From Acidobacteriota bacterium (GTDB taxonomy: Bacteria > Acidobacteriota > Terriglobia > Terriglobales > Acidobacteriaceae): DNA of 64,000 nt. A model generated the notes under the pieces. It was not told the origin of the DNA, searched no databases, and saw only the letters and a program-made list of their open reading frames with translations. Shown piece after piece: positions 8,886 to 56,321 of the stretch. Numbering within the stretch: the first letter of the stretch is position 1; the number at the start of each line of letters is the position of its first letter. A program made the translations under genes and the position numbers. The DNA lies in contig JAJYSV010000016.1 of assembly GCA_021793405.1 (NCBI GenBank), forward strand, positions 5,184 through 69,183, given 5' to 3'.

Positions 8886-8901
8886 AGTGATGAATATCAC
8901 A
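8886..8901. promoter_or_regulatory. Crp/Fnr-type palindrome GTGA-N6-TCAC upstream of the cus operon
   Basis: AGTGATGAATATCACA. Site centre is about 62 nt upstream of the ORF start at 8831. Confidence 0.5.
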
Positions 8902-9070
8902 TCATTCCGATTCGGAGATCGCGTGTTCGCCAAGATCGATTGCCGAATGCTCGAGCCCTGAGAGGATGAAGTTGGCAAAGGAGCCTCGTTCGGGATTTGT
9001 ACTGAGATACGCTAGCTGTGAAGTTTCACTATTGGTGTAGACCGAAGCGGCGATGATGGCGCAGCTTTTC

Positions 9071-9096
9071 CGTCAAAAAAAGCTGCTCTTCCTTGA
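9071..9096. other. 9-bp-stem hairpin in a low-GC non-coding stretch
   Basis: GCAGCTTTT (9071-9079), loop ccgtcaaa, AAAAGCTGC (9088-9096). Confidence 0.4.
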
Positions 9097-9442
9097 ACTT
9101 CGAGAGTTCACAATAGTAGTGAAAATGCTCTATATCCCTTTCGGGACTGGCCCGGTGCACTGAGGCTGCGCTGGCGGGCGCGTTTTCTTCACAGCCTATA
9201 CCGTGCCGATTATTGAGAATGCGAGACGTCTTTGCGGTTGAGCGAAGTTTGGCCAAGATATGCTTGATTTTCGATCTTGGCCAGAATTTGCGTGATTTGT
9301 TCGTGGCAAAAACTCCGCACTTAAGATTTTTTAGAGCCACCTTTGCGCTTGATCTCAGAATCCGGCAACCCATCTTCGCCGCCGCCGCAGCAGAGTAGAA
9401 TATTCTCGATTTCGACTAATCCCTTGGCCGGTTTTGAAGCGT

Positions 9443-9477
9443 CCACATGCGGTCGGCTGTGAGGCGACCGCATGTGG
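9443..9477. other. perfect 13-bp inverted repeat (hairpin or operator) upstream of the GH97 gene
   Basis: CCACATGCGGTCG (9443-9455), 9-nt loop, CGACCGCATGTGG (9465-9477). No T-run on either side, so it is not a classic intrinsic terminator. Confidence 0.5.
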
Positions 9478-9521
9478 CGCTCGCCTGGAGAAAATCAGTT
9501 TCAGATATTTGGAGGGTAAGG

Positions 9522-11525
9522 ATGTTGCATGTGAAAGCTCGCGCCTTGTTTGTCATGTCTATGTTGGTCGTACTCGGCTCTTTACCCGTACTGGCGCAAT
9601 CCGGCCCGGCTGAAGCCAACTCGCCGGATCACCGGATCACTCTGCGTTTTGCTATTGTACCCGGCAAGGGGCAAGCCTCCGGAGAAGGTCAGTTGGTATA
9701 TTCGGTCGCCTTCCGCGGCAAACCAGTCCTCGAGAACTCCGCATTGAGCTTGCAGTTGGCCGATCAGCCGCCGCTCGGCGCCGCGGTGCATATTGTCGGC
9801 AGTAACGCAGGCTCCGGCGTGGACGACTACGCGCTGCTGGCAGGCAAGACCTCCGCCGTGCGGGATGCATACAACGATGTGACGGTGCAGGTGGCCGAAG
9901 GCGCGAGTCCCGGCCGCAAGTTCGCGGTCGAAGCCCGTGTGTACAACAGCGCTGTGGCTTTCCGTTATCAAGTACCGCAGCAGGCAGCGCTCGCTCGCTA
10001 TCAACTCATGCAGGAGGACACGGAGTTTCATCTGAGTGACGACGCCACTGCTTGGGCAATCCGCCTGCCGAATTACCAGACCCCATATGAAGGCGAGTAT
10101 ATGCGGCAGACGGTAGGCGCGCTGAGCAACGAGGGCGGCGTGCGTAGCGATATCCTCACCGGAGCACCGATGCTGCTGCACCTGCCCGGAGTGGCTTGGG
10201 CAGCCATCTGCGAAGCAGATACCGAGGGCAACAGCGCCATGTATCTTGAAGCTGTCCCCGGCGACTGGAAGAATCATTCCCTGATGACCAAGGTCTCCCC
10301 GCCTGTCGATGGACGCGGCCCCGCAGTCGATGCGAGTCTGCCTCACCATAGCGCCTGGCGCGTATTGCTGCTTGGCGATAGGGCGGGGGACCTGATTGAA
10401 TCGAACGCGATCAGCGATCTGAATCCGCCGAACCGCGTCGCAGATACCAGCTGGATCCATCCTGGCAAAGCTTCCTGGGATTGGTGGAGCGGCGATCTTG
10501 ACCCTGATGGGAAGCCCGCATTTACCACCAAAAACATGGAGTATTATGTCGACTTTGCCGCCAAGTCCGGCTTTCCTTACATGATGCTCGACGCCGGCTG
10601 GTCGCCGCGCTATGACATCACCAAAATGGTTGGAAATGTAGACGTGCCGGAGTTGGTGCGCTACGCCGCGAAAAAAAACGTAAAGGTATGGATCTGGGCC
10701 CACTCGAAAGCAGTTGCCGCACAGATGCAAACCGCATTTCCCTTATATGAGAAGTGGGGTGTGGTCGGCGTCAAGGTCGACTTTGTGCAGCGCAACGACC
10801 AGAAGGGCATCCAGTTCTACTACGACGTAGGGAAGCTCGCCGCCGAGCATCATCTCATGCTCGATTTTCACGGTGCGACGCCACCCTGGGGAATTGAGCG
10901 TACGTATCCGAACATACTCAACTATGAAGCCGTGCTCGGTCTCGAATACAACAAAGTGACCCGGCGCGACGGCCCACTCAATCGGACCGTCTACCCTTTT
11001 ACCCGCATGTTGAGCGGTCCGCTCGATTACACGCCGGGCGGCTTTGACAATGTGACCGAGGACGATTTCGTCGCCCGTTCCGTGCACCCCATGGTGGTGG
11101 GAACGCGCGCTCAGCAGTTGGCGCTGTACGTCGTCTTTCGAGCGCCTTTCGAGATGATTTCCGATGCCCCTTCCGCGTATGCCAATCAGCCAAGCTTTCA
11201 GTTCCTGCGCGACGTACCCACGGTTTGGGATGCGACCCGCGTACTGGCTGGTGATCCTGGCGAATTCATCACGGTCGCAAGGCGGCATGGCCGCGACTGG
11301 TACCTGGGTAGCATCACCAACTGGAGCCCGCGCACGCTAACAGTCCCGCTTGATTTTCTCGGCGGCGGTGCTTACACCGCGGAGATTTACGAGGACGCCC
11401 CCGATGCCGCGCAAAATCCGAAACACGTGTCGATCCTTAAGCAAACCGTTCACAGCAGCGACACGCTAACGCTGACGCTTGCAAAGGGCGGTGGGTGCGC
11501 CATACGCTTTGTGCCGGTCCATTAG
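9522..11525 (+). CDS. glycoside hydrolase family 97 (alpha-glucosidase/alpha-galactosidase type), secreted
   Basis: GH97-like core (MMLDAGW, KWGVVGVKVDFVQRNDQ, MLDFHGATPPWGIERTYPN). ATG 9522 after GGAGGG gives the signal peptide MLHVKARALFVMSMLVVLGSLPVLAQ. Confidence 0.8.
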   Translation: MLHVKARALFVMSMLVVLGSLPVLAQSGPAEANSPDHRITLRFAIVPGKGQASGEGQLVYSVAFRGKPVLENSALSLQLADQPPLGAAVHIVGSNAGSGVDDYALLAGKTSAVRDAYNDVTVQVAEGASPGRKFAVEARVYNSAVAFRYQVPQQAALARYQLMQEDTEFHLSDDATAWAIRLPNYQTPYEGEYMRQTVGALSNEGGVRSDILTGAPMLLHLPGVAWAAICEADTEGNSAMYLEAVPGDWKNHSLMTKVSPPVDGRGPAVDASLPHHSAWRVLLLGDRAGDLIESNAISDLNPPNRVADTSWIHPGKASWDWWSGDLDPDGKPAFTTKNMEYYVDFAAKSGFPYMMLDAGWSPRYDITKMVGNVDVPELVRYAAKKNVKVWIWAHSKAVAAQMQTAFPLYEKWGVVGVKVDFVQRNDQKGIQFYYDVGKLAAEHHLMLDFHGATPPWGIERTYPNILNYEAVLGLEYNKVTRRDGPLNRTVYPFTRMLSGPLDYTPGGFDNVTEDDFVARSVHPMVVGTRAQQLALYVVFRAPFEMISDAPSAYANQPSFQFLRDVPTVWDATRVLAGDPGEFITVARRHGRDWYLGSITNWSPRTLTVPLDFLGGGAYTAEIYEDAPDAAQNPKHVSILKQTVHSSDTLTLTLAKGGGCAIRFVPVH

Positions 11526-11656
11526 AACTTGTTGCAGCCGCGAAATAGAGACGCGACAAAGGCTCTTCGAACTCGTCTGAACGTATAGCGTGTGCCTGAA
11601 ACACCTTCCCCCGGGCGGCACGATGATTCTGAATCTTCTATTTTCTTGATAGCGAC

Positions 11657-14320: not shown

Positions 14321-14332
14321 GAGCATTGCAGG

Positions 14333-15217: not shown

Positions 15218-15275
15218 GCATCGCTGTCTTTCGTCAACTTCAGAGCGAAGATGGATCGCTTACAGTTGGAACGGA

Positions 15276-15881: not shown

Positions 15882-16610
15882 TTATGCGGCCCGGACGCGA
15901 TAACCGTCCGGATCTTTCCCTCGCACCCGTCGCCACCATACTTGGAACGTGGGCACGTTGACAGTGACGATAAATAGTTTCCGCAAGCTGTCGGGCGGGC
16001 ACTGGAGCGGACGCACGCCATGCCACGAATGGTCCGTGCGCTGAAAAAACAGGCTTTCATTCCCCCGCGGCACCAGCGAAGCGGCGACTTTCAGATCGTC
16101 GAACGCCGGAGCGGAATGCGGCTTGAAGCGGCCTTCGTCGTCCATCATTAGGATCTGGCCTCCCCATTCCGTTTCCCAATCCTCTTCCGTGTTGAAGTAA
16201 AAAATATGTGTTGCCAGTTTGCGCCGGGCATCGCAATGCGGCGAGACCGAACACCCCTGCCAAGCGTAGTACCACTCCATGGTGAGGATGAATTCCTGCG
16301 GCCCCAGCATGCTGCGCAGCCAGGACTGGTAGGCATCGCCTTGCAGTTCCGCAACGAATTCCTGCCAGGGTTCCGGCAACTCCATGCCGGGTCTGTAGTG
16401 CAGGATGTAGCGGTCGTGCGGAGCTTGCCCATGGCCGCGCTTGACCCCGACCTTGCGATCGAACTTCTCCACGTCCGGCATGGCGTTGCGGAGACGCTCA
16501 AACCCCTCCTCGGTCAGCGTCGCGGGAATGCTGATCCAGGGATAGGGATGTTGCGTCCGGAATGTTTCCGGGGAAAGGGCCTCGATATGCCCTGCGTCGA
16601 GATAGGTCAT
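15882..16610 (-). CDS. 2OG-Fe(II) oxygenase-superfamily protein (uncharacterised)
   Basis: HxD...H iron facial-triad candidates (SPHCDAR ... HSWHGV). ATG 16610 (MTYLDAG...) is preceded by GGAGG. The track ORF extends to 16661. Confidence 0.6.
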   Translation of the reverse strand: MTYLDAGHIEALSPETFRTQHPYPWISIPATLTEEGFERLRNAMPDVEKFDRKVGVKRGHGQAPHDRYILHYRPGMELPEPWQEFVAELQGDAYQSWLRSMLGPQEFILTMEWYYAWQGCSVSPHCDARRKLATHIFYFNTEEDWETEWGGQILMMDDEGRFKPHSAPAFDDLKVAASLVPRGNESLFFQRTDHSWHGVRPLQCPPDSLRKLFIVTVNVPTFQVWWRRVRGKDPDGYRVRAA

Positions 16611-16668
16611 ACCCAACCTCCGAAGACAGACACTCAGGAATACGGTCTCATTCCTGCGCACTTTCCTC

Positions 16669-16684: not shown

Positions 16685-16756
16685 GGGCCATGGGAGGCCA
16701 ATTCTGGCCACCGGCGCGCGCTTTGCAAGGGCGGGCTTCGGTTGAGTGTTTGGAGG

Positions 16757-17521
16757 CTAGCGCCGAACGGCGTCGGTTGGCGCGGGCTTGGAATGCGGAT
16801 CGGTCTGTGCGTGGAGCGCCTGCAGGTCCAGAATGACGATGCGATGGCCATGAATGGCCACGATTCCCTGCTGCACCAGCTTCTGCAGGCTGCGCGTGAC
16901 CACCTCGCGCACGGAGCCGAGCCGCGACGCGAGTTGCGTGTGCGACAGCGGCATCGAAAAAGAGACGCCATCCAGCAGCGCCGGATTTTTCCGCCGGGCC
17001 TCCTCCAGCAGCAGCGTCGCCAGCCGCTGGGTCACATCTTTCAAAGCGAGTTGCTCGGCCAGGGAAGCGACCGTGCGCAGTTTCCTGGCCAGGATCGCCA
17101 GCGCGGTGAGGGCCGCCTCAGGATGTTGCAGCAGGAAACGGCGGACATCTTCTTTCGCCAGGAACAGCAACTCTGAATCTTCTTCCGCCATGGTGGTGGA
17201 AGGATACGGGCCGCCATCGAACACGGGCACCTCGGCCAGCGTGCCGCCGACGCCCTCCACATGGATCGTCTGCTCACGGCCATCGACGTTTTCACGGAAG
17301 GCGCGCACGGAGCCGGACAACACGACATACATTCCTTCCGCCGGCTGGTTGGCGGTAAACAGGATCTGGCCACGGGAAAGCTTGCGCTCCCGGCCGCGCG
17401 CCGCCAGTTCCGCCAGGGCAGGTAAGGGCAGGTTCTGGAACCAGGCGGACTTGGCCAGCACTTCCATGCGGCGCTCAAGCGACATAGCGCCATCTTGCCG
17501 CATGGGCGTTAAGATTGGCAA
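16757..17521 (-). CDS. Crp/Fnr-family transcriptional regulator (Cys-free, Dnr/NnrR-like by context)
   Basis: cNMP-binding-like N-domain plus C-terminal HTH (HTQLASRLGSVREVVTRSLQKL). No cysteine in the whole ORF. TTG start at 17521 lies 14 nt after AGGAGG. Divergent from ytfE. Confidence 0.85.
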   Translation of the reverse strand: MPILTPMRQDGAMSLERRMEVLAKSAWFQNLPLPALAELAARGRERKLSRGQILFTANQPAEGMYVVLSGSVRAFRENVDGREQTIHVEGVGGTLAEVPVFDGGPYPSTTMAEEDSELLFLAKEDVRRFLLQHPEAALTALAILARKLRTVASLAEQLALKDVTQRLATLLLEEARRKNPALLDGVSFSMPLSHTQLASRLGSVREVVTRSLQKLVQQGIVAIHGHRIVILDLQALHAQTDPHSKPAPTDAVRR

Positions 17522-17552: not shown

Positions 17553-17568
17553 TGTGATGAAAGTCACT
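17553..17568. promoter_or_regulatory. Crp/Fnr-type palindrome in the divergent regulator/ytfE intergenic region
   Basis: TGTGATGAAAGTCACT. Site centre is 55 nt upstream of the ytfE ATG (17616) and 39 nt upstream of the regulator start. Confidence 0.6.
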
Positions 17569-17615
17569 GAGTCCCGTGCGCTGAATCACTACTGTCGGGG
17601 CAGGAGATTTAGATC

Positions 17616-18329
17616 ATGGTCATCACCTCAGAAACACAAGTTCGCGACATTGCAGTCGAATATCCAACTACGATCCCGGTTCTGGAGCGTTTCGGTATCG
17701 ATTTTTGCTGCGGAGGGAAACATACGCTGGCGGAAGCCTGCACCAAGCGCGATGTCAACCTTGCGCCCGTGCTGGAGGAACTGGAACGCCAGCAGGAGAA
17801 CACAAATGCACCCGAGACCGACTGGCAGAACGCCCCATTGAAGGACCTAGCCGGCTACATTGTCAGCAAGCATCATGCGTTTACGCGGAACCAGATTCAG
17901 CTGATCGGCGGTTTGATGACGAAGGTGGAGGCGCGCCACGGGGAACATCATCCCGAGGTCTTTCAGATCGGTAAGGTCTTCGCCGTTGTCAGTGCCGAGC
18001 TTGCGCATCACTTCGTTTGCGAAGAAACCATCCTGTTTCCTTATATAGGCAAACTGGAAGGCGGCCAGCAAGCCGCACTGCCTCCTATGTTCGGCAGCGT
18101 GGAGCAGCCCATCACGCGCATGATGGCCGACCACGACCAGGCGGGCGAGGAGCTGCGCGAACTGCGCGGCCTCACCAATAATTACACGCCGCCGACCGCA
18201 GCCTGCCCCACGTGGCGCGCTCTCTATCGCGCTCTGGAAGACCTGGAGCAGGATCTGCACCAGCACATTCATCTGGAGAACAACATCCTTTTTCCGCGAG
18301 CATTGGCGCAAGCGAAGGGGACAGCGTGA
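17616..18329 (+). CDS. ytfE: iron-sulfur cluster repair di-iron protein (RIC/YtfE/ScdA)
   Basis: ScdA-type N-terminus (PVLERFGIDFCCGGKHTL) plus a hemerythrin-like His/Glu-rich C-domain. AGGAG lies 9 nt upstream of the ATG. Confidence 0.85.
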   Translation: MVITSETQVRDIAVEYPTTIPVLERFGIDFCCGGKHTLAEACTKRDVNLAPVLEELERQQENTNAPETDWQNAPLKDLAGYIVSKHHAFTRNQIQLIGGLMTKVEARHGEHHPEVFQIGKVFAVVSAELAHHFVCEETILFPYIGKLEGGQQAALPPMFGSVEQPITRMMADHDQAGEELRELRGLTNNYTPPTAACPTWRALYRALEDLEQDLHQHIHLENNILFPRALAQAKGTA

Positions 18330-19663
18330 ATGCGCCGCTTGCATCGCTGGAGCAATCGGCGAATGCGACGCGGGTTGCGATGGAGCGGCACAGCCAGCGG
18401 TTGGTGACCGCCTTCATCGCAAGCGGCATGCTGTTCATGCTGCTGCCCGGAACATTTCTGGGCGTGTGGAACCTGATTGGCATTTCTCAGCAACACACGC
18501 TCAGCAGTTTGTCCGCGGCATGGTTGCAGGCGCACGGTCAGGCACAAATCTACGGTTGGGTTGGTTCATTCATTCTAGGCATTGGCTTTTACTCCCTGAC
18601 CAAGATGCAGAGTACGCTGAGCTTTCCGGTCCGCGCGGGATGGACTTCGTGGGGTCTGTGGACGCTGGGGATCGCGCTGCGCTGGACCGGCGGTGTAACT
18701 GGCTGGCATTGGAGAATTCTGTTGCCGCTTTCCGGCGCGCTGCTGCTGATCGCCTGCCTGCTGTTCTACCGTGCTGTCCGGCGCCATCGACCTGCGGACC
18801 CGGCGCGTCGCATGGAAGCCTGGATGGCAATTGTGATTGCGGCAACCGTAGCGTTTCTGGTCGCGGTGGCAGCGAATTGCGCTGCTTTGATGTACCTCGC
18901 TTTCTATGGAAATTCGCCAGCGCTGCCGCATGGCTTCGATCTGCAGCTGGTCGTGCTCGCAGTCTGGGGTGTGCTGGTGCCAACCATTTGGGGCTTTAAT
19001 GCGCGCTGGCTGCCCGTGTTTGCCGGATTTCAGAAGCCCGATGGCATTCGTCTGCTGGTGGCCTACGGCCTCAGCGTTGCCGGCGTGGTTGCGGTCTTCC
19101 TGCAGTGGCTGCCTATAGCTGCCGTCCTATTTTTGTTGGCAGCTTTATTGGCGATCGATGCGCTACATGTGTGGCGGCCAGCCGTCCAGCCAGCCAAGCT
19201 CTTGCATGTCCACAAAACATTTCCACTTTTCATCCGCGTTGCGTATGTCTGGCTGGTGGTGTCGTGCGTGCTGGATGCCATCGCCATCCGCTACGACCAT
19301 GCCGGAGGCATCTGGGGAGCCAGCCGTCACGCGCTGACAGTCGGCTTTGTTGCTGGCATGGTCTTCGTCATCGGACAACGAGTTTTACCCGCCTTCTGCG
19401 GCATGCGCGTGCTGTGGAGTACTCGGCTCATGTTCTGGTCGCTGCTGCTGTTGCATATCGGATGTTTCCTGCGCGTGACATTGGAGCCGTTGGCGTATGA
19501 GAACTATTGGAATTTTGCCTGGAAATTGCTGCCGTACTCTGCATTCGTGGAGTTGACCGCGGTTGTCCTGTTCGCAGTCAACATGGCGGCAACGTTGTTG
19601 CATCCACCCGCCCATCTTCGCCCCGAAATTCATTCTCCACTGCCTACACGAGGTGCCGCTTGA
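18326..19663 (+). CDS. nnrS: NnrS-family membrane protein
   Basis: Polytopic membrane protein in NO-response context. GTG 18326 overlaps the ytfE stop (GTGA 18326-18329). The track ORF starts inside ytfE. Confidence 0.75.
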   Translation: MNAPLASLEQSANATRVAMERHSQRLVTAFIASGMLFMLLPGTFLGVWNLIGISQQHTLSSLSAAWLQAHGQAQIYGWVGSFILGIGFYSLTKMQSTLSFPVRAGWTSWGLWTLGIALRWTGGVTGWHWRILLPLSGALLLIACLLFYRAVRRHRPADPARRMEAWMAIVIAATVAFLVAVAANCAALMYLAFYGNSPALPHGFDLQLVVLAVWGVLVPTIWGFNARWLPVFAGFQKPDGIRLLVAYGLSVAGVVAVFLQWLPIAAVLFLLAALLAIDALHVWRPAVQPAKLLHVHKTFPLFIRVAYVWLVVSCVLDAIAIRYDHAGGIWGASRHALTVGFVAGMVFVIGQRVLPAFCGMRVLWSTRLMFWSLLLLHIGCFLRVTLEPLAYENYWNFAWKLLPYSAFVELTAVVLFAVNMAATLLHPPAHLRPEIHSPLPTRGAA

Positions 19664-21951
19664 AATCCTATAAACGTCTCTGGATTGCGCTGTCCATTGT
19701 TGTCATCGGTTCTTTCATCATCCTTGGCGCCGTGGGGCACCACATTATCAGCCATGCGCCGCCGATTCCCAACCAGGTGGTCACCACCGACGGAAAGGTG
19801 TTGTTTACCGGGACCGAGATCACCGATGGCCAGGGAGTCTGGCAGTCGATCGGCGGCCAGGAGATTGGCACCGTCTGGGGTCATGGCGCGTATGTCGCGC
19901 CAGACTGGACTGCCGACTGGCTGCATCGCGAATCCATGTTCACGCTGGACACTTGGGCGCGCCAGCAGGGGGCGGCCTCCTATGCGGCGCTTCCCGATGA
20001 GCAAAAGGCCGCACTTGATGCCCGGCTGCGCGATTCGCTACGACGCAATACGTACGATCCAGCGACCGGCAACATCGTTATGCTGCCGGTCCGGGCGGCC
20101 GCTTTCGATTCGCTGGAAAAGTATTACGCGAATATCTTTGGAAACGGTCGCGACAATTACGCCATTCCACGCGGGACGCTGAGCGATCCAGTGAAACAGC
20201 GGCAAATGGCGGCTTTCTTCTGGTGGACTTCCTGGGCCGCGACTACGGACCGCCCAGGCGAGGACGTGACCTACACCAACAACTGGCCGCATGAGCCATT
20301 GGTGGGCAATCAGCCGACGCCGGGAGCCATTGTGTGGAGCATTTTGAGCTTCGTTTTTCTGCTGGCCGCTGTGGGTGCGATGGTCTGGTATTTTGCAGCT
20401 CGTGAGGTGGATCCGATCCGTGAGCTGCCACCGTCGCACGATCCGCTTCTCGGTCTGCATCCAACCCCGTCGCAACGCGCCACCATGAAGTATTTTTTTG
20501 TGGCGGCGGCCATGGCATTGGTGCAGATTGCGTGCGGCATCATCACGGCGCATTACGGCGTCGAAGGATCGAAATTCTACGGTATCCCGCTGGCGCGATG
20601 GTTCCCCTACGCAGTCTCGCGCACCTGGCATCTGCAACTGGGAATTTTCTGGATTGCGACTTCCTGGCTGGCAACGGGGCTGTATGTTGCTCCCGCAGTC
20701 AGCGGACATGAACCCAAAGGGCAGCGACTGGGCGTCAATCTGCTGTTTGGCGCGCTGGTGCTGGTCGTCGCCGGTTCGCTGGTGGGGGAATGGATGGGGA
20801 TCGAGCAGAAGCTGGGCAACCTGTGGTTCTGGTTCGGCAGCCAGGGGTATGAGTATGTCGATCTCGGCAGGTTTTGGCAGATTTTGCTCTTTGTTGGTCT
20901 TGTCTTCTGGCTGTGGCTTATGTGGCGAGCATTGCGGCCAGCGTTGGCTGTGCCGTCCGAAGGCCGACATCTGCTGGTGCTGTTTCTCATCAGTAGTATC
21001 GCCATTCCGCTTTTCTATGGCGCTGGGCTGATGTACGGACAACGCAGCAACCTGGTTACTGCGGAGTATTGGCGCTGGTGGGTGGTGCATCTGTGGGTGG
21101 AAGGGTTCTTTGAGGTCTTCGCCACAGTGGTGATTGCGTTCCTGTTCACCCGGCTGAATTTGTTGAGAGTGCAAACGGCGACGCGAGCGGTACTGTTCTC
21201 GACGATCATATTTTTGTCCGGTGGGATCGTTGGCACCTTCCATCATTTGTACTTCAGCGGGACAGGAGCAGCGGTCATCGCGCTAGGCTCGGTCTTCAGC
21301 GCGCTTGAAGTAGTGCCTCTGGTGCTGATTGGCTTTGAGGCATGGGACAACATTCGCCTCGGGCAGCAACGCTCGACGGCTGTGTGGATCGCTGCCTACA
21401 AATGGCCCATCTGGTTCTTTGTTGCGGTTGCCTTCTGGAACTTCGTTGGAGCGGGACTGTTTGGGTTCCTCATCAATCCGCCGGTCGCGCTCTATTACAT
21501 GCAAGGGTTGAACACGACCGCAGTGCACGGTCACACCGCATTGTTTGGCGTCTACGGCATGCTGGGGCTCGGGTTGATGTTGTTTTGCCTGCGTGCTCTG
21601 CGCCCGGGCAGAGCATGGAAGGACCGACCGCTGGCGATCTCTTTCTGGTCAATCAACATTGGCCTTTCCTTGATGGTGCTGCTGAGCCTGCTGCCCATTG
21701 GCATTCTGCAGGCGTGGGCCTCGGTGCAATACGGAACATGGTATGCACGCTCGTCGGAATTTCTGCAGACGGGAATGATGAACGATCTGCGCTGGATGCG
21801 GATTCCCGGCGATACGCTGTTCGCCTTCGGGATGGTCGTATTCTGCTGGTTTCTTCTCGGGCTGGTGACGGGCCATTCCTTTGCGGACAAAGGATTTGTG
21901 GAGGAAGGGAGTTGGGAGGTCACATCCGAGAAGGCTACCGCGGGCAAATAG
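19660..21951 (+). CDS. norZ: quinol-dependent nitric oxide reductase (qNor, single-subunit)
   Basis: About 763 aa, a heme-copper-oxidase-like NorB core with the N-terminal extension typical of qNor. No in-frame ATG lies near the conserved N-terminus (KSYKRLWIALSIVVIGSF). TTG 19660 overlaps the nnrS stop (TTGA 19660-19663). Confidence 0.9.
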   Translation: MKSYKRLWIALSIVVIGSFIILGAVGHHIISHAPPIPNQVVTTDGKVLFTGTEITDGQGVWQSIGGQEIGTVWGHGAYVAPDWTADWLHRESMFTLDTWARQQGAASYAALPDEQKAALDARLRDSLRRNTYDPATGNIVMLPVRAAAFDSLEKYYANIFGNGRDNYAIPRGTLSDPVKQRQMAAFFWWTSWAATTDRPGEDVTYTNNWPHEPLVGNQPTPGAIVWSILSFVFLLAAVGAMVWYFAAREVDPIRELPPSHDPLLGLHPTPSQRATMKYFFVAAAMALVQIACGIITAHYGVEGSKFYGIPLARWFPYAVSRTWHLQLGIFWIATSWLATGLYVAPAVSGHEPKGQRLGVNLLFGALVLVVAGSLVGEWMGIEQKLGNLWFWFGSQGYEYVDLGRFWQILLFVGLVFWLWLMWRALRPALAVPSEGRHLLVLFLISSIAIPLFYGAGLMYGQRSNLVTAEYWRWWVVHLWVEGFFEVFATVVIAFLFTRLNLLRVQTATRAVLFSTIIFLSGGIVGTFHHLYFSGTGAAVIALGSVFSALEVVPLVLIGFEAWDNIRLGQQRSTAVWIAAYKWPIWFFVAVAFWNFVGAGLFGFLINPPVALYYMQGLNTTAVHGHTALFGVYGMLGLGLMLFCLRALRPGRAWKDRPLAISFWSINIGLSLMVLLSLLPIGILQAWASVQYGTWYARSSEFLQTGMMNDLRWMRIPGDTLFAFGMVVFCWFLLGLVTGHSFADKGFVEEGSWEVTSEKATAGK

Positions 21952-22019: not shown

Positions 22020-22991
22020 ATGAACATCGCCGCAAACGTGACGGAACTGATTGGACGTACACCGCTGGTGCAGTTGAATCGCGTAACGGAAGGGTGTCAG
22101 GCCAGGGTGGTTGCCAAGCTCGAAAGCTCCAACCCGTTGAGCAGCGTCAAAGATCGTATCGGGCTGGCGATGATTGAAGCGGCGGAACGTGAAGGCAAGA
22201 TCGCGCCGGGCAAGACGGTGCTGATTGAGCCAACCAGCGGCAACACCGGCATTGCGCTCGCATTCGTAGCTGCGGTAAAGGGTTACAGCATCATTCTCAC
22301 AATGCCGGAAACGATGAGCCTCGAACGTAGAATTCTTCTGCTGGCGCTGGGAGCGCAGATTGTGCTGACGCCTGGGCCCAACGGCGTGAAGGGATCGATC
22401 GCCAAGGCGGAAGAATTGCTGCGCGAGACGCCCAACAGCTATATGCTGCAGCAGTTCAACAATCCCGCCAATCCGAAGGTCCACTTCGACACTACTGGGC
22501 CGGAGATCTGGAACGATACCGACGGCAAAGCGGACATTCTTGTCTCGGGCATTGGCACCGGCGGCACGCTGACCGGAGTGAGCGAGTATATCAAGGCCAG
22601 AAAGCCCGGCTTTTGGTCGGTTGCGGTGGAACCCGCGGACAGTGCCGTGCTCTCCGGCGGCAAACCAGGGCCGCACAAAATCCAGGGGCTCGGTGCCGGC
22701 TTTGTACCTAAGATACTGAAGACGGAGTTGATTGACGAGATCATTACAGTGACGAACGACGACGCCATCGCCATGGCGCGACGGCTGCCGAAAGAGGAAG
22801 GCCTGCTGGTTGGCATCTCATCCGGAGCGGCCGTCCATGCTGCGCTGCAACTGGCGCGCAATCCGAAACACGCCGGCAAGCTGATCGTCGTCATCATTCC
22901 CAGTGCGGGTGAGAGGTATCTCTCCACAGTCTTGTTCGACGAATTCCGAAAAGAGGCCCTGGAGACGAAAACGTCCGCCGTGACAGTATGA
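22020..22991 (+). CDS. cysK: cysteine synthase A (O-acetylserine sulfhydrylase)
   Basis: 323 aa, PLP-enzyme motifs ([30 protein letters not shown]). Confidence 0.9.
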
Positions 22992-23749
22992 ATCTGGTTC
23001 GACTGATTCGCGAAGACATACGATGCGTGTTCGAACGGGACCCCGCGGCTACATCGAAGGCAATGGTGCTGCTCTGCTATCCAGGCCTGCACGCGGTGTG
23101 GGTCCATCGCATTCACCATTGGCTTTGGTGCAAAAAGTTCAAGCTGCTGGCACGCGTGCTGTCGCAGATCACGCGCTTTTGGACCGGTATTGAAATCCAT
23201 CCAGCGGCGCGCATCGGACGGCGGTTGTTCATCGACCACGGAATGGGAGTCGTCATCGGGCAGACCGCAATCATTGGGGACGACGTGACACTCTATCAGG
23301 GCGTGACCCTCGGAGGTACGGGAAAAGGCGAAGGCAAACGCCACCCCACCCTGTGCGACGGCGTCTTTGTCGGCAACAATGCCAACATCCTGGGCAATAT
23401 CACCATCGGAGAACATTCGCGTGTTGGCGCTGGGTCCGTGGTTCTGCGCGATGTGCCTCCGGACTCGACCGTCGTCGGTGTTCCGGCGCACATCGTGTAT
23501 CAGGGCGGCAAGCGCGTGCTCATTACCGATCCGCGTGACGTGAGCGACCCGCTCTCCGATGTGATTATCGCTCTGTGCGACGAAGTGAAGCGGCTGAAGG
23601 CCCGCGTCGAACGGCTGGATGGCGAATTGCAACAGGCCATGCCGGAGGAGCCGCAGAGCGCGCTTGCGGTGGAGGAAGAAGAACGCGCCACCTATCGAAG
23701 CCAGCTCTACTCAAGATCCGATTACGTAAACATGGGCGAAGGAATCTGA
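22988..23749 (+). CDS. cysE: serine O-acetyltransferase
   Basis: Hexapeptide-repeat region ([41 protein letters not shown]). ATGA overlap with cysK. Confidence 0.9.
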
Positions 23750-24920: not shown

Positions 24921-24956
24921 CCAGACCTACTGTACGAGGGAAGGCATGCACACAGC

Positions 24957-24972
24957 AGTGACTTATATCACG
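24957..24972. promoter_or_regulatory. Crp/Fnr-type palindrome GTGA-N6-TCAC upstream of the polyferredoxin gene
   Basis: AGTGACTTATATCACG. Site centre is 44 nt upstream of ATG 24920. Confidence 0.5.
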
Positions 24973-25039
24973 AGTTTTTTCGAACGATGCACGCTAGCGT
25001 AATCAATCGGCAAGATCCATCCGGAGCGGTATAGATTTC

Positions 25040-25996
25040 CTATCGCCCACCATCGAGCATCCGGGAGACTTCAGCAAACGTCGGCATCGAAGGCTGCGCG
25101 CCCGCTCGGGTGACGGAAACGGACGCGGCAGCCACAGCGAACCTGGCACTTTCCAGCGCAGATTTTCCCAGCATCAGCCCGACCGCAAACGCGCCATTCA
25201 GCGCATCGCCGGCCGCGGTGGTATCCACGGCTTCGACTGGCATTGCGTGCAAGAGCTGCTCGACCCCGTCGGCGGCCAGATACGCTCCGCGGGGACCCAG
25301 CTTCAGAATGATGCCTCCAGGACCCTGCGCCAACAAGGAGCGCGCAGTTTCACGCAGAACTCGTGCATCAACACTGCCTTGGCCAAGGTCGTCCGCGACG
25401 CGTCCGACATAAAAATCCGCTTCTGTTTCATTGGGAGTGAGCCAGCGAATGCGCCGCAGCAGGCTCGGGGGAAGCGCCTGCGCTGGAGCGGGATCCAGCA
25501 TCAACGGAACCCTCTCCTGAAAGCACAATTCGGCTAGCCGCTCCACGGACTCGATGGGAATTTCCAGTTGCGCCAGCACCAGGCCGGCGCTCCGAATCAG
25601 AGATCGATGCTGCTCAACATACAGTGGTGACACCGCGGCATTGGCTCCCTGCGTTACCACGATCGAGTTTTCTCCCGTCGCGGCAACGGTGATGGCGGCA
25701 ATACCAGAGGATCCTTCCACCGTCTCGACCCCGGCCATCCCAACCCCGGCACTTTGCAGCTGCGCGCGCAGGCGTTCGCCGAACAGGTCCGATCCCAGTT
25801 TTCCGATCATTTCGACGGGGTAGCTCAGACGAGCGACAGCGACAGCTTGATTGGCGCCCTTTCCTCCCGAATACATCTGGAAGCCGGATCCGAGCAGTGT
25901 TTCTCCCCCCGCCGGTATCCGGGACACTGTGGAGACGAGGTCCATATTCATGCTTCCCACCACAACAATGGGCCGCATTGTCTTCGATCGATTCAT
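25040..25996 (-). CDS. rbsK: ribokinase (PfkB family)
   Basis: PfkB motifs (VVVGSMNMDLV, GGKGANQAVA, DTTAAGDALNGAF). ATG 25996 (MNRSKTMRPIVV) follows AAGGA and lies 21 nt after the upstream stop. The track ORF to 26149 overlaps the permease gene. Confidence 0.85.
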   Translation of the reverse strand: MNRSKTMRPIVVVGSMNMDLVSTVSRIPAGGETLLGSGFQMYSGGKGANQAVAVARLSYPVEMIGKLGSDLFGERLRAQLQSAGVGMAGVETVEGSSGIAAITVAATGENSIVVTQGANAAVSPLYVEQHRSLIRSAGLVLAQLEIPIESVERLAELCFQERVPLMLDPAPAQALPPSLLRRIRWLTPNETEADFYVGRVADDLGQGSVDARVLRETARSLLAQGPGGIILKLGPRGAYLAADGVEQLLHAMPVEAVDTTAAGDALNGAFAVGLMLGKSALESARFAVAAASVSVTRAGAQPSMPTFAEVSRMLDGGR

Positions 25997-26016
25997 TGCT
26001 ACGTTGTCCTTTGCCG

Positions 26017-27015
26017 TCAATGAGCGCGAAAAATGGGAGCAAACGCAACCGCAGACAGCCCCAGAAGAAAAAGAACGAACATCAGGCCCAGCAATTTGCG
26101 CGAACGCGGTGGCGCGCCGGCGAACTCGTGCCATACAAACACACCCCATGCCGCGGAGATCATCGTCGCGCCCTGGCCAATGGAATAAGAAACTGCGGGA
26201 CCAACGATGTGCGCGCGCGAGGCGACAAAGTTAAAGACTGTGCCTGTGCACCAAACGGCTCCGCCCAGCACCCCCCATGCGTGCCAGCGGAACGGGGCGC
26301 TGAAATACTCTGACATCGCGACCGGCGGCTTTCCATCGAGCGGTTTGTGCATCAACAAAGAATTGAAAACAAGCGCACACAGGCCGGTGCCGACCACGAA
26401 ATAAAACGAGGTAGCATACGGTCCAGGCGCATGCGATATATCCATTGCGTGCGCGACCAGAGGATAGAAGCTGCCCATCAAAACGCCTGCCACCAGGCTG
26501 AGGATCAATCCGCGACGGCTCATGGCGCGGTGTCCCCTTTCTCGCATCCCATAGGCCAAGGCGTCGCACACGATGGCGGCAACCACCAGCGCAACCCCGC
26601 CAAACAACAGGACCGGATTCCCATTCGGTGACAATATATAGCTGCTGACTGCGCCCACAACCAGCGCCACGCCGATGCCGACGGGAAATGCCACAGCCAG
26701 CCCGGCGATCTCAATGGCTGCGACCAACAGGAGATTCGCGATATTGAAAATGACTCCAGCCAGGACCGCGCAGACGACACTGACTTCTCCCGCGCCGGTC
26801 ACATCCGCTAGAAATGGTTGTCCCGCTTGTCCAACGGAGCCGAGCGTGAATCCCCACAGCAGCGCCCCGGCGAACAAGCCGATCCCATAGTCCCAATAAA
26901 ATAACTGGAACCTGTAAGTCGGGCATAGTTTTACTGTGTTGGCCCATGATCCCCAGCCGAGCATGCTGATGACCATGAATAGAAGAGCAATCGTGTAGGT
27001 CTCTGGCTGATACAA
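26017..27015 (-). CDS. putative sugar uptake permease, DMT superfamily (RbsU/GlcU/RhaT-like)
   Basis: 332 aa, about 10 TM segments, directly upstream of rbsK in the same operon. Exact family not verified. Confidence 0.55.
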   Translation of the reverse strand: MYQPETYTIALLFMVISMLGWGSWANTVKLCPTYRFQLFYWDYGIGLFAGALLWGFTLGSVGQAGQPFLADVTGAGEVSVVCAVLAGVIFNIANLLLVAAIEIAGLAVAFPVGIGVALVVGAVSSYILSPNGNPVLLFGGVALVVAAIVCDALAYGMRERGHRAMSRRGLILSLVAGVLMGSFYPLVAHAMDISHAPGPYATSFYFVVGTGLCALVFNSLLMHKPLDGKPPVAMSEYFSAPFRWHAWGVLGGAVWCTGTVFNFVASRAHIVGPAVSYSIGQGATMISAAWGVFVWHEFAGAPPRSRKLLGLMFVLFLLGLSAVAFAPIFRAH

Positions 27016-27315
27016 GAGGATTCCTCAAATCTCTTCGGCCGGAATCGTGCCCGGGTTCCGCTTCTTGCGTGGAGCAATTCACGGCACCCGGGTACCTATC
27101 ATCGGTCGTGCGGTGCAGTTCTTCCTGACGGAAGACGCACCGCGGTACTCCATCCTACTGGCTGCATCCACAGTGGAATCGATCTACCACTGCGGCCTGA
27201 GATTCACATAACCTGATAACTGTACGTTCCTGCCGTCCCATCGGCAAGTGACGCATGAACCGCACACTACTCGGTGTATCCTCAACATTGCTTTATTCGA
27301 GATATAAGGATCGAG

Positions 27316-27341
27316 GCTAGCCTATGCTAGGCTATGCTAGG
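27316..27341. repeat. helically phased GCTAG triplet including tandem CTATGCTAGG x2
   Basis: GCTAG at 27316, 27326 and 27336 (10-bp spacing). CTATGCTAGG at 27322-27331 and 27332-27341. Immediately upstream of the FNR-like gene. Confidence 0.4.
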
Positions 27342-27358
27342 TTAGGCAGGTGCAGCCG

Positions 27359-28066
27359 ATGGCGGATGACTGTTCCAACAGGATGGAGAACGAAGGCTGT
27401 CTTACGTGTAAAGACAGGCATGTCGACTGGTTCTGCAACCTGTCTCCGCAGGCCCTGGTGGAATTCGAAGCCCTCGGGATGCATATGATTGTGCCATCGG
27501 GCAGCACGCTCTTTTTTGAGTCGCAAACTGCCCGCAGCGTATACGTGCTATGTTCCGGCCATGTAAAGCTGACCACCTCATCCAAAGATGGAAAGACACT
27601 CCTGGTAAGGATCGCCAAGCCCGGGGATGTGCTGGGCTTGAGCGCTGCCCTCTCGGGCACAGCGTATGAGATTGCCGCGCAAGCCATCGATCCTGTGCAG
27701 GTGAAGTCCTTTCAGCGCCAGGACTTTCTTCACTTCATCGAACATCACATTGAAGGCAGCATGCATGCCACCAAGATGCTCAACAGAGAGTATCGCGATG
27801 CACTGGGCGATGCTACCCGGCTCGCACTTTCCATGTCGATTGCCGGGCGCGTTGCCAGGCTCCTGCTCGAAATGACATCGGATCAACGCGACGCGAAGCC
27901 CCGCATTACCATGGCGCTTACGCATGAAGAGCTCGCCACCATGCTGGGCACCACGCGCGAATCCATCACTCGCGTTCTGAGTGAGTTGAAACGCAAAGAA
28001 ATTATTTCCGTCAAAGGCACCTCTCTGACCATCCTTCGCAAGGCCGCACTGGAATTGCTCGTCTAG
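27359..28066 (+). CDS. Crp/Fnr-family regulator with N-terminal four-Cys cluster (FNR-like O2 sensor candidate)
   Basis: MADDCSNRMENEGCLTCKDRHVDWFC gives C5-x8-C14-x2-C17-x8-C26. HTH is HEELATMLGTTRESITRVLSEL. GTG 27350 is an alternative start. Confidence 0.8.
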   Translation: MADDCSNRMENEGCLTCKDRHVDWFCNLSPQALVEFEALGMHMIVPSGSTLFFESQTARSVYVLCSGHVKLTTSSKDGKTLLVRIAKPGDVLGLSAALSGTAYEIAAQAIDPVQVKSFQRQDFLHFIEHHIEGSMHATKMLNREYRDALGDATRLALSMSIAGRVARLLLEMTSDQRDAKPRITMALTHEELATMLGTTRESITRVLSELKRKEIISVKGTSLTILRKAALELLV

Positions 28067-28111: not shown

Positions 28112-28154
28112 GCTGTTCGGCCTGGGCGTTACTATTGTGGTGAAGAGGGGCCGC

Positions 28155-29519: not shown

Positions 29520-29541
29520 GCAATGTACAGGAGATACCGCG

Positions 29542-50970: not shown

Positions 50971-51010
50971 GAAAGGAAGCAGGGGACTGGTAGCGTTGAA
51001 GTTCGACCCA

Positions 51011-51673: not shown

Positions 51674-51749
51674 GGCGGGAGTGTATCACTGCGGCTGGGC
51701 ACGCGTGGAAACACTCCCTGGGTTGGAACAGATTTGAGAAAATCGTTGC

Positions 51750-52298: not shown

Positions 52299-52376
52299 AG
52301 ATGTTCTTCGCGGCTGCTGAACAGCGCTGCTTTACACTGATCTTTCATCTTCATCCTCGCAAACTTCAGGAGTTCT

Positions 52377-54278: not shown

Positions 54279-54373
54279 AACGGTAACGATGTTCATTGCC
54301 TATGCCGCCGTTCTCAGTCTATGGGAGCGGCGTTTTCCTGTATGCTGCAATGGAATTGATGAGGACACGAAAA

Positions 54374-56197
54374 ATGTCGCTCCCAACACGCCTCTACTGT
54401 GGTGCAGTGCTTGCAGCAATGTTTCTTGCCGGTCTTGAACTCTATGCTCAGCCCGCGCAATTGCTGGTCGATGCCGACCACCGGACCGCGATCAGCCTGG
54501 ATGGAACCTGGCACGCCATTGTGGATCCGTACGGCAAGGGACTGTATGCTTCCGACGGCAGCGTTTTACAGCACGGCTACGGCGAAAACCGCCAGCCAAA
54601 ATCGAAAGCCGATCTGGTCGAATACAGCTTTGCGAAGAGCCCCACGCTCCAGGTTCCCGGCGATTGGAACACGCAACGCAAAGACCTGTTCTTCTACGAA
54701 GGCGTGGTTTGGTATCAGAAAGATTTCGCTTACACGCCGAAACCGCGCACGCGTGCGTTTCTCCACATTGGAGCGGCCAATTATCGCGCCTATGTCTTCG
54801 TCAACGGAACCAAGATCTGCCAGCATGAGGGAGGTTTCACTCCCTTCGATTGCGAAGCGACGAGTGTGCTGCACGGTGGCCACAATTTTGTCGTGATCGC
54901 TGTCGACAACACGCGCCTGCGGGATGGCGTTCCCGCGTTGAGGACAGATTGGTGGAACTATGGAGGGCTGACGCGCGATGTTTCGCTGATCGACGTGCCG
55001 GAGCAGTATATCGACGACTACGACTTGCACTTGCAGCGCGATACTACGACGGGAATCGCGGGCTACGTCCACGTGCAGGGCGCGTCCGCGGGAGAGCCGG
55101 TGGTGGTGCGCATTCCGCAGGCAGGCATTGTGCGGAAAGCCATGACAGATGCATCCGGTCGCGCAGAGATTTCACTCCATGCGCCGAAATTGGAATTGTG
55201 GGCACCCGAGCATCCAAAACTGTATCGTGTCGAAATTCAGGCAGGGAGCGACCATCTCAGCGACGAGATTGGCTTCCGCACCATTGAGGTTCGTGGCACG
55301 GAGATTCTTCTGAATGGCACGCCGATCTTTCTGCGCGGCGTTTCCATCCATGGAGAAGCGCCCATCCGTGGCGGCCGTCCCACCAGCGAAAAAGATGATG
55401 AGACGCTTTTGCGATGGGCGAAAGAAATGGGCGTAAATTTTGTGCGCCTGCCCCATTACCCGCAGAGCGCCCGCATGTTGCGGCTTGCGGACCGCATGGG
55501 CATTATGGTGTGGGAAGAAGTGCCTGTCTACTGGGCCATCGAGTTCGACAATCCACTGGTGCTGACCAAAGCCCAGCAGCAACTGCACGAGATCATTCGG
55601 CGCGATCGGGACAAGGCGTCAGTCATTTTCTGGTCCGTCGCCAACGAAACGCCGGTCAATCCGGCGAGGAATGCATTCCTGGAATCGTTGATCTCGTCCG
55701 CGCGGGCGCAGGACGGCACGCGTCTGGTCACCGCCGCCATGCTGTCCTCCATGCATGGGAACGAGATTCAAGTCAACGACCCGCTTGGCGTGTACCTCGA
55801 CGTCGTCAGCTTCAATGAATATGCGGGATGGTATCAAGGCTCGGCGGACGACGTCGGCAAAATCAAGATCACCTCCATCTATCAAAAGCCGTTATTGTTG
55901 AGCGAGTTTGGCGCAGGCGCCAAGGCCGGTTTCCACGCCGACGTTCAAACTCGATGGAGCGAAGAATTTCAGGCCAATGTATATCGTCAACAATTGACGA
56001 TGCTACGCGGCGTGAAGAACTTGCGCGGCATCTGCCCGTGGCTGCTGGTAGATTTTCATTCACCCATGCGCGAGCTTCCCGGCATACAGGATTTCTACAA
56101 CCGCAAGGGACTCATCTCCGATCAAGGTCAGAAAAAACAGGCCTATTTCGTGATGCAAAAGGCGTATTTGCAGCGGACCGTTGGCAACGCGCAATAA
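54374..56197 (+). CDS. glycoside hydrolase family 2 (beta-glucuronidase/beta-galactosidase-like), secreted
   Basis: WSVANE (acid/base region), NEYAGWY, LSEFGAG (nucleophile region). ATG 54374 after GAGGA gives a signal peptide. Confidence 0.8.
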   Translation: MSLPTRLYCGAVLAAMFLAGLELYAQPAQLLVDADHRTAISLDGTWHAIVDPYGKGLYASDGSVLQHGYGENRQPKSKADLVEYSFAKSPTLQVPGDWNTQRKDLFFYEGVVWYQKDFAYTPKPRTRAFLHIGAANYRAYVFVNGTKICQHEGGFTPFDCEATSVLHGGHNFVVIAVDNTRLRDGVPALRTDWWNYGGLTRDVSLIDVPEQYIDDYDLHLQRDTTTGIAGYVHVQGASAGEPVVVRIPQAGIVRKAMTDASGRAEISLHAPKLELWAPEHPKLYRVEIQAGSDHLSDEIGFRTIEVRGTEILLNGTPIFLRGVSIHGEAPIRGGRPTSEKDDETLLRWAKEMGVNFVRLPHYPQSARMLRLADRMGIMVWEEVPVYWAIEFDNPLVLTKAQQQLHEIIRRDRDKASVIFWSVANETPVNPARNAFLESLISSARAQDGTRLVTAAMLSSMHGNEIQVNDPLGVYLDVVSFNEYAGWYQGSADDVGKIKITSIYQKPLLLSEFGAGAKAGFHADVQTRWSEEFQANVYRQQLTMLRGVKNLRGICPWLLVDFHSPMRELPGIQDFYNRKGLISDQGQKKQAYFVMQKAYLQRTVGNAQ

Positions 56198-56305
56198 CCC
56201 ATCGAACGCGGTTTACGGCAAGCGCGCTCCCTCCCGCTCCAGCCTTCGCCGATACAACATCGGGATAACGCTCTGACCTGTGATCTGGTGTCAGGTGTCA
56301 CATCA

Positions 56306-56321
56306 CGTGACCTAGGTCACT
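56306..56321. promoter_or_regulatory. Crp/Fnr-type palindrome GTGA-N6-TCAC inside a TGACCT repeat cluster upstream of the DUF4382-like gene
   Basis: CGTGACCTAGGTCACT, containing the perfect 12-bp palindrome TGACCTAGGTCA (56308-56319). TGACCT also occurs at 56274 and 56321. Site centre is 120 nt upstream of ATG 56434. Confidence 0.45.

Follow-up and report, generated by a model that had tools for sequence, protein, structure and literature searches.

The 64,000-nt stretch of the Acidobacteriota contig JAJYSV010000016.1 analysed here (the window) carries six copies of the palindrome GTGA-N6-TCAC, located upstream of genes for copper efflux, nitric oxide (NO) detoxification and respiration. By protein searches the window belongs to an uncultured member of the Acidobacteriaceae (Terriglobia). 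Two Crp/Fnr-family regulators, which we call Reg1 and Reg2, are encoded in the same window. A preliminary description of the sequence had proposed that one or both of them use the palindromes to control copper, NO and low-oxygen genes as one regulon. We assigned gene identities by Pfam, NCBIfam and PDB searches, and the labels given previously (pump, oxygenase, two regulators, NO genes, NapH-like protein, CydAB and DUF4382 protein) were all recovered. The features are listed below in the order of the window; site classes refer to the central four bases of the palindrome.

2251-8350, minus strand: cusC (6992-8350), cusB (5415-6995) and cusA (2251-5418), from Pfam, NCBIfam and PDB searches
8460-8795, minus strand: putative Cys/Met-rich lipoprotein of 111 amino acids (aa) at the head of the cus operon, MLAMMVLW...VFAC, with CC...M...C...CC motifs
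8832-8859, minus strand: predicted sigma-70-type cus promoter, -35 CTGACA (8854-8859), 16-nt spacer, -10 TACACT (8832-8837)
8887-8900, minus strand: site 1, GTGATATTCATCAC, read toward cus, upstream of the predicted promoter with its centre at about -68
15882-16610, minus strand: 2-oxoglutarate (2OG)-Fe(II) oxygenase family gene, 242 aa, Pfam PF13640 and PF13661, start as in the public call of the near-identical contig L001
16670-16683, minus strand: site 2, GTGATGCACGTCAC, a G..C-centre site oriented toward the 2OG oxygenase gene, whose ATG (16610) lies 66.5 nt away
16757-17485, minus strand: Reg1, Crp/Fnr-family regulator, 242 aa, start MSLERR, Pfam cNMP_binding and HTH_Crp_2
17554-17567, plus strand: site 3, GTGATGAAAGTCAC, AT-centre class, between the divergent genes Reg1 and ytfE and 55.5 nt before the ytfE ATG
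17590-17595: predicted -10 hexamer of ytfE, TACTGT, starting 23 nt after site 3
17616-21951, plus strand: ytfE/RIC (17616-18329), nnrS (18326-19663) and the quinol NO reductase gene norZ (19660-21951), with overlapping stop and start codons
23796-24920, minus strand: NapH/MauN-like membrane polyferredoxin gene, two Pfam Fer4_5 matches, NCBIfam TIGR02163 sub-threshold
24929-24934, minus strand: predicted -10 hexamer of the NapH-like gene, TACAGT, starting 24 nt after site 4
24958-24971, minus strand: site 4, GTGATATAAGTCAC, read toward the NapH-like gene
27359-28066, plus strand: Reg2, Crp/Fnr-family regulator, 235 aa from MADDC, Pfam PF00027 and PF13545
28097-28110, plus strand: site 5, GTGACAGATGTCAC, 51.5 nt from the cydA ATG at 28155
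28133-28138: predicted -10 hexamer of cydA, TATTGT, starting 23 nt after site 5
28155-30588, plus strand: cydA (28155-29519) and cydB (29542-30588), from Pfam, with the start placed by the conserved N-terminus
56307-56320, plus strand: site 6, GTGACCTAGGTCAC, 120.5 nt from the ATG at 56434
56434-57871, plus strand: DUF4382/DUF5666 Met-rich lipoprotein gene, frameshifted near 57074-57099

A pattern search for GTGA-N6-TCAC over the window returned exactly six matches (8887, 16670, 17554, 24958, 28097 and 56307) and none besides, the same number that had been counted before. About one match per window had been expected by chance. This agrees with the 0.85 obtained from 100 dinucleotide-preserving shuffles, in which the maximum was three and six were never reached (0/100). 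When one mismatch was allowed, 25 matches were found in the window against 23.4 expected, with no enrichment over chance; the excess is therefore limited to the exact core, and for this reason only exact cores were analysed. For gene calls in the window we relied on a codon-usage caller, which leaves about 7.8 kb (12%) non-coding and reproduces the public annotation of L001. By these calls every one of the six sites is intergenic, as had been claimed, and each lies upstream of a gene. The earlier distances from site centre to start codon (62, 66, 44, 51 and 120 nt) were reproduced. Site 5 overlaps the first ATG (28104) of the longest cydA open reading frame (ORF); the conserved CydA N-terminus MSDALLLHRL..., matched by Pfam and by relatives, begins at 28155, in agreement with the start codon assumed previously.

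For comparison we used 80 loci around Reg1 homologues, taken from contigs representing one genome per species; for Reg2, the DUF4382 protein and CusC the neighbourhoods of orthologues were added. The metagenome scan for Reg2 was carried out with a single protein and gave 9 close loci, so that Reg2 sampling is phylogenetically narrow. Of the sites in the 80 Reg1 loci, 119 fall into the 0.221 Mb between genes, where composition predicts 3.2, and 22 into the 1.025 Mb of coding sequence, where it predicts 13.5; the motif is about 25 times denser between genes, an excess that belongs to Reg1 neighbourhoods and is not a genome-wide figure, because the loci are gene neighbourhoods and not whole genomes. 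Equal density in intergenic and coding DNA is thereby ruled out for these loci. Leaving out 1.5 kb on each side of Reg1, 49 intergenic and 16 coding sites remain. A pyrimidine at position 5 together with a purine at position 10 (the Y5/R10 rule) characterizes 71 of 72 distinct intergenic sites compared to 11 of 23 coding sites (p = 3e-8), and we therefore refined the motif to GTGAY-N4-RTCAC. This is the FNR-type box (TTGAY-N4-RTCAA) with G replacing T, and a G at that position correlates with Arg180 of the recognition helix (Rodionov et al., PMC1274295). Boxes of the type TTGA-N6-TCAA are essentially absent near the regulators. Phylogenetic footprinting showed each of the six sites again in the promoters of orthologues from other Acidobacteriaceae genomes, with conserved half-sites and diverging central bases and flanks; five of the six are kept in another metagenome-assembled genome (MAG), DX2.bin61 (L005 and L106). 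Judged from sequence, the six sites are almost certainly functional Crp/Fnr-type operators.

Site 3 was compared across Reg1 homologues, which are encoded divergently to ytfE or nnrS, in many loci with norZ next in line; this is the arrangement of DNR/NnrR-type regulators. Most of these loci, at protein identities between 96% and about 40%, have an exact site between the two genes. They span Acidobacteriaceae, Bryobacteraceae, Pyrinomonadaceae and FCPU426 MAGs, and the rest of the spacer diverges throughout. In the Acidobacteriaceae loci (YtfE at least 53% identical) the site centre is mostly located 53.5–62.5 nt from the ytfE or nnrS start, in four loci at 85.5–104.5 nt; the distant lineages have a looser spacing of 48.5–96.5 nt. 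Site 3 also lies upstream of Reg1's own gene. The recognition helix of Reg1, VREVVTR, is near-invariant in 27 aligned homologues of 65–90% identity: V-R-E-V and the final R are invariant, and T197 is replaced by S in a few. In other phyla the core of NO-responsive regulons includes dnrN (ytfE), nnrS and nor (PMC1274295), and the conserved linkage to ytfE, nnrS and norZ is the sole ground on which we regard Reg1 as a putative NO sensor.

Two further observations concern the same region. A near-palindrome with one mismatch, GTGCGCTGAATCAC (17576-17589), is located 22 bp further downstream than site 3 and borders directly on the -10 hexamer predicted for ytfE; L001 carries an exact-site version of this element, GTGAGCCCGATCAC, and it is kept in the closest relatives only. 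It might be the site of a repressor or of a second regulator. In addition, cysK-cysE follow norZ in the window (22020-23749) and follow the DUF4382 orthologue in the more distant L095/L096 (5790-7522), which hints that cysteine supply is functionally tied to these stress genes.

Around Reg2 the sites precede genes of a low-oxygen type. In 14 of 14 loci of Reg2 orthologues (61–100% identity) sites with G..C-type centres directly adjoin Reg2. The cydA site is kept at 50.5–55.5 nt from the start in seven further contigs while its central bases vary (AGAT, GATC, AGTC, GGTC, GGAC, GGTT); the loci with a conserved site are L002, L005, L006 and L082-86. The site of the NapH-like gene is kept in ten contigs, among them L002, L003, L005, L006, L083-86 and L090; in relatives it has a G..C centre and is common to the divergent Reg2 gene, the NapH-like gene and Reg2 being divergent neighbours with one common site in L002-L006 and L083-86. 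In the window a pfkB kinase and a sugar permease gene stand between the two (24972-27358), and in this lineage the upstream site of Reg2 was lost and the NapH site changed from a G..C to an AT centre. The site of the 2OG oxygenase is kept at 65.5–67.5 nt in L001-L006, L083 and L084. Relatives also keep an inverted repeat, AGGAAT-N8-ATTCCT (16636-16655, minus strand), between site 2 and the 2OG start; this repeat might form a hairpin in RNA or serve as a further operator.

In L014, L028 and L087-89 G..C-type sites are found upstream of genes for tandem-Usp proteins, alcohol dehydrogenases, Pta, phosphoenolpyruvate (PEP) synthase and rubrerythrin-VIT1. The gene set of the G..C-type sites matches the usp, adhP and cydAB genes that are induced by nanoxia in Acidobacterium capsulatum, for which the papers name no regulator (PMC11636273, PMC8407424). 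The MAG contigs L014 and L028 carry 10 and 12 pattern matches within 12–20 kb, mostly intergenic and also upstream of P-type ATPases, a few overlapping called genes; these loci are dense islands of hypoxia-type genes.

Crp/Fnr-type activators at Class II promoters, such as those of CRP and FNR, bind a site centred at -41.5. Here a TAnnnT hexamer starting about 23 nt past the 14-bp core would occupy -12 to -7, which places the site centre at -41.5. Among 44 distinct ytfE/nnrS promoters, 33 have a TAnnnT that starts exactly 23 nt past the core, and two more have it at 24 nt. A hexamer at 23–24 nt is likewise present in 9/9 NapH, 8/8 cupin-DUF2249, 7/8 cydA and 5/9 Usp promoters. The ytfE, cydA and NapH-like promoters thus have the classic Class II Crp/Fnr geometry, with transcription starts that are predicted from sequence. 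There is no TAnnnT hexamer on the Reg1 side of site 3.

Both regulators match PF00027 and PF13545 and are members of the Crp/Fnr superfamily. CRP recognizes its operator core GTGA (TGTGA-N6-TCACA) through Arg180, Glu181 and Arg185. The R-E-x-x-x-R pattern previously read from SVREVVTR in Reg1 and TTRESITR in Reg2 is indeed located in the recognition helices (TRESITR in Reg2) and is kept in all homologues examined; together with conserved GTGA...TCAC sites beside both regulator genes this is the CRP-type mode of DNA recognition. A test for co-evolution between helix and box is uninformative because every homologue keeps R-E-x-x-x-R. The best matches among solved structures are actinobacterial CRP/GlxR proteins for both regulators, DNR and FNR being weaker; DNR (3dkw) matches at E = 7.5e-17, compared to 1e-23 to 1e-26 for the actinobacterial CRPs. 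In CRP proper, residues of the Arg82/Ser83 type bind the phosphate of cyclic AMP (cAMP); Reg1 and Reg2 both have Tyr where GlxR and Mycobacterium tuberculosis CRP have this Arg, and with scores of 62.5 and 53.5 they stay below the NCBIfam CRP cutoff of 266. For FNR proper the NCBIfam Fnr score of Reg2 is 41.8 against a cutoff of 228, and the GTGAY-N4-RTCAC box with an R-E-x-x-x-R helix differs from TTGAT-N4-ATCAA read by Glu209/Ser212/Arg213. HcpR was also considered as a family assignment and not adopted. Because of the Arg to Tyr change and because no NCBIfam equivalog cutoff is approached, Reg1 and Reg2 are not CRP, FNR, FixK or NtcA proper.

In FNR the [4Fe-4S] cluster is held by Cys20, Cys23, Cys29 and Cys122. 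Reg2 has four N-terminal cysteines (Cys5, Cys14, Cys17 and Cys26), three of which align with Cys16, Cys20 and Cys29 of Escherichia coli FNR. HMMER alignments of Reg2 to A. fischeri FNR start at residues 2–5. From its sequence Reg2 is a plausible candidate for an iron-sulfur (Fe-S) sensor.

The sites fall into two groups according to their centres. Those flanking Reg1 and those of the NO type (ytfE, nnrS, cupin-DUF2249, and norZ in distant lineages) have AT-rich centres with the consensus GTGAYTTAAGTCAC. In most sites of the second group, found at cydA, NapH/Reg2 and the 2OG oxygenase, position 6 is G and position 9 is C. The mean number of A or T in the central four bases is 3.27 in the Reg1 class and 1.53 in the Reg2 class (Mann-Whitney p = 6e-8, distinct sequences), where p-values overstate independence because the Reg2-class sites come from four or five independent lineages. 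We lean slightly toward the reading that GTGAY-N4-RTCAC is the operator of two Crp/Fnr activators whose targets are divided by the central four bases. Reg1 would be a functional analogue of DNR/NnrR/HcpR that, under NO or nitrosative stress, binds AT-centred sites at -41.5 and activates ytfE-nnrS-norZ in the Class II manner. Reg2, FNR-like with its four-Cys N-terminus, would bind G..C-centred sites (GTGAYGnnCRTCAC) and switch on a low-oxygen set that comprises cydAB, the NapH-like polyferredoxin and the 2OG oxygenase in the window and adds Usp, alcohol dehydrogenase, Pta, PEP synthase and Reg2 itself in relatives. We infer which regulator pairs with which sites, the effectors (NO, O2) and the sign of regulation.

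Several points weigh against the proposed division, next to the restricted sampling and the dependence among sites already given. The classes overlap: site 4 of the NapH-like gene is AT-centred in the window and G..C-centred in relatives, and the DUF4382 site switches class across relatives. At the 2OG, cus and DUF4382 promoters the -10 spacing is not that of Class II. Neither a Cys motif nor sensor residues can be identified in Reg1, and no Reg2 cysteine aligns with Cys23 or Cys122 of FNR. NO and O2 as effectors are guesses from gene context.

At the copper efflux operon the arrangement is a different one. A Class II cus promoter was considered and rejected, since no -10-like hexamer lies at +23 and a conserved -35/-10 pair is found further downstream. 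Both hexamers are conserved in the orthologous alignment, the -35 being TTGACA in L104; site 1 lies 27 nt upstream of CTGACA, and its position relative to the pair is fixed. With the pair downstream, the site centre comes to about -68, which is the position of an upstream activator and not of an operator over the core promoter. The cus site is found in 6 of 7 lineages (CusC 73–100% identity) with differing upstream neighbours. An exact site at the same relative position is present in L101/103, L104-106, L107, L108 and L110-116 (CusC 73–88% identity). In L117, on a contig from a complete genome, the left half of the site is replaced, next to an insertion sequence element, and only ATCAC-TGCCG remains (about 9520-9540). 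The same contig has an rve transposase gene about 2.3 kb further upstream (6770-7225), with two small ORFs between.

The pump itself is of the CusA type, scoring 1072 bits against E. coli CusA vs 527 bits against ZneA. The residues aligned to Met573, Met623 and Met672 of CusA, which form the Cu(I)/Ag(I) site in its structures, are all Met. At the C-terminus of CusB there is an additional YtkA/FixH-like domain, whose MPAMPAMGM motif is rich in Met; L108 encodes this domain as a separate ORF of 70 aa. For the Cys/His ORF at the operon head the conserved MLAMM... is the most likely N-terminus, which puts its start codon (8793-8795) 98 nt away from the site centre. Length and Cys pattern of the 111-aa protein are kept in 7 lineages, and changes at third codon positions exceed those at first and second positions. 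Its lipobox-like VFAC is VSAC in most relatives. Searches of Pfam and NCBIfam gave no match for this protein, and its ORF is uncalled in some public assemblies.

Site 6 is kept as GTGACGCAAGTCAC in L091 and as GTGATTTAGATCAC in L092-94 and is absent in the orthologues of 63–65% identity (L095-L100), which stand in other genomic contexts. A +1 frameshift splits the DUF4382 gene of the window, its intact homologues being 478–479 aa long (P0121, 98% identity); either the assembly is wrong here or the gene has recently become a pseudogene. Directly after site 6 lies a palindrome GACC-N3-GGTC (56322-56332; GACCTAAGGTC in the window, GACCCAGGGTC in L091 and GACCGAGGGTC in L092), and a run of GTCAC/GTGAC-like repeats is located just upstream (56288-56306), which suggests that the promoter receives additional regulatory input. 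At the other end of the window dnaN is found (615-1784), and because of it the region may lie near the chromosomal replication origin.

Three other explanations have to be considered. An 8-base core is short enough to arise by chance, and sites in coding DNA of the related loci do occur near the chance rate, so that the palindromes could be chance matches or non-regulatory repeats such as REP-like elements or terminator stems. This is barely credible in view of the six matches against 0.85 expected, a number not reached by any shuffle, their position upstream of genes in every case, and the fixed spacing to the -10 hexamers; the conservation of half-sites amid diverging centres and flanks effectively refutes it. 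A single regulator, Reg1 or Reg2, could instead bind all six sites, the centres merely tuning affinity. The 8-bp core and the Y5/R10 rule are common to all sites, both proteins carry R-E-x-x-x-R, and the 20-kb locus L028 has about 10 intergenic sites of both centre types (12 matches in all) around a Reg1 homologue without any Reg2 homologue. The window NapH and DUF4382 sites, which change class between relatives, would also fit. Against one regulator speaks the strong functional split in centre composition: G..C sites stand systematically beside Reg2 orthologues and AT sites beside Reg1 orthologues, and the paralogues are only about 27–31% identical, both being conserved with their own sites. 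We regard a single binder as distinctly unlikely. The one regulon of the preliminary description, divided by centre composition into an AT class with Reg1 and the NO genes and a G..C class with Reg2 and hypoxia-type genes, is probably an over-merge of two overlapping Crp/Fnr regulons.

For copper the question is whether the two regulators are involved at all. The cus site, possibly also the DUF4382 site, might be read by a third factor, either another Crp/Fnr paralogue from a different part of the genome or a metal-responsive regulator, and copper would then stand outside the NO/O2 network. The cus half-sites are almost always GTGAT/ATCAC, where C predominates at position 5 elsewhere. The site lies at about -68 before a complete -35/-10 promoter and not at -41.5, no Crp/Fnr gene is located beside cus in any examined locus, and the DUF4382 site adjoins the second conserved palindrome. 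L108 has another GTGAT..ATCAC site, ahead of small genes that stand next to the gene of a CDF transporter; the products of these small genes have no Pfam or NCBIfam match. On the other hand core, spacing and Y5/R10 rule are identical to those of the Crp/Fnr sites, and GTGAT half-sites also occur at the ytfE and 2OG sites. Crp/Fnr activators commonly work from upstream (Class I) positions. Furthermore E. coli Cus matters most at low oxygen (PMC8910356). We consider a separate factor rather unlikely. The conserved sites with the same core at cus and DUF4382 therefore suggest that copper efflux is wired into the Crp/Fnr network, and the connection could be a Class I-type activation by Reg1 or Reg2, or the work of the third factor. 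Thus the copper part of the earlier proposal holds with respect to the site, conserved in 6 of 7 lineages, but its promoter geometry differs from that of the Class II sites.

The preliminary description had further held that this combination was undescribed. This is true in part. Paired NO- and O2-sensing Crp/Fnr paralogues with a common box (PMC1274295), the HcpR box TGTGA-N6-TCACA (PMC1274295) and CRP-type control of cydAB in mycobacteria (PMC7739888) are known; in the open-access literature we did not find the Acidobacteriota circuit or a Crp/Fnr-type site on cus described, nor any transcription-factor regulon for Acidobacteriota. The NO/low-O2 circuit is thus a known paradigm in an unstudied phylum, and the copper link is the fresh element. 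A direct Crp/Fnr input to copper efflux would be a new regulatory connection. It would be physiologically sensible, because Cu(I) is more toxic without oxygen and because copper and NO both attack Fe-S clusters. As a tentative and rather doubtful extension, the whole phylum might use one box for its NO- and O2-sensing paralogues, partition targets by the central four bp and directly switch on cus and the DUF4382 gene when O2 falls or NO rises. If true, copper defence would be hard-wired to nitrosative and hypoxic stress, a link that in E. coli is only indirect, via CusRS. Acidobacteriota are among the most abundant soil bacteria, and the motif with its two regulators is a testable candidate for their nanoxia response and NO tolerance in soil.

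Among known systems the closest are ANR/DNR of Pseudomonas and FnrP/NNR (NnrR) of alpha-proteobacteria. They likewise consist of two Crp/Fnr paralogues with one box type, one tied to nor, nnrS and dnrN (ytfE) and the other to low-oxygen respiration, with Class II activation from -41.5, which is predicted from sequence in our case. They differ in the box (TTGAT-N4-ATCAA there, GTGAY-N4-RTCAC here) and in the helix (E-x-x-S-R there, the CRP-like R-E-x-x-x-R here). Unlike these pairs, Reg1 and Reg2 resemble the actinobacterial CRP/GlxR structures more closely in sequence than they do DNR or FNR, the host is a non-denitrifying-type acidobacterium with only the quinol NO reductase, and cus is among the predicted targets. 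HcpR, a Crp/Fnr regulator of NO and nitrosative stress in Desulfovibrio that responds to nitrogen oxides, reads wTGTGAnnnnnnTCACAw and has Arg at position 180 (PMC1274295). The CRP-like box and this Arg are shared with Reg1; however, HcpR is defined by control of hcp and frdX, whereas the predicted core targets of Reg1 are ytfE, nnrS and norZ, and no hcp homologue was noticed downstream of sites in the examined loci, a systematic search for hcp not having been made.

The actinobacterial CRP/GlxR proteins resemble the present regulators in their motif TGTGA-N6-TCACA, in structure matches and in the control of cydAB, which is predicted here and which M. smegmatis Crp1 directly activates under respiration-limiting conditions (PMC7739888). 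They are cAMP binders, whereas Reg1 and Reg2 carry Tyr at the phosphate-binding Arg, and they do not have the N-terminal Cys motif of Reg2. E. coli FNR is similar to Reg2 in its Cys-rich N-terminus and its predicted low-oxygen-type target set and differs at the Cys23 and Cys122 positions as well as in recognition helix and box. Finally, the copper operon resembles the E. coli CusRS-cusCFBA system in having a pump of the CusA type, with three Met at the Cu(I)/Ag(I) site, and in the physiological link to low oxygen. In E. coli the two-component regulators CusR, HprR and PhoB control cus (PMC8910356), whereas here no two-component genes flank the operon and a Crp/Fnr-type palindrome lies upstream of its promoter; and where E. 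coli has cusF inside cusCFBA, the operon of the window is headed by the small Cys/Met lipoprotein.

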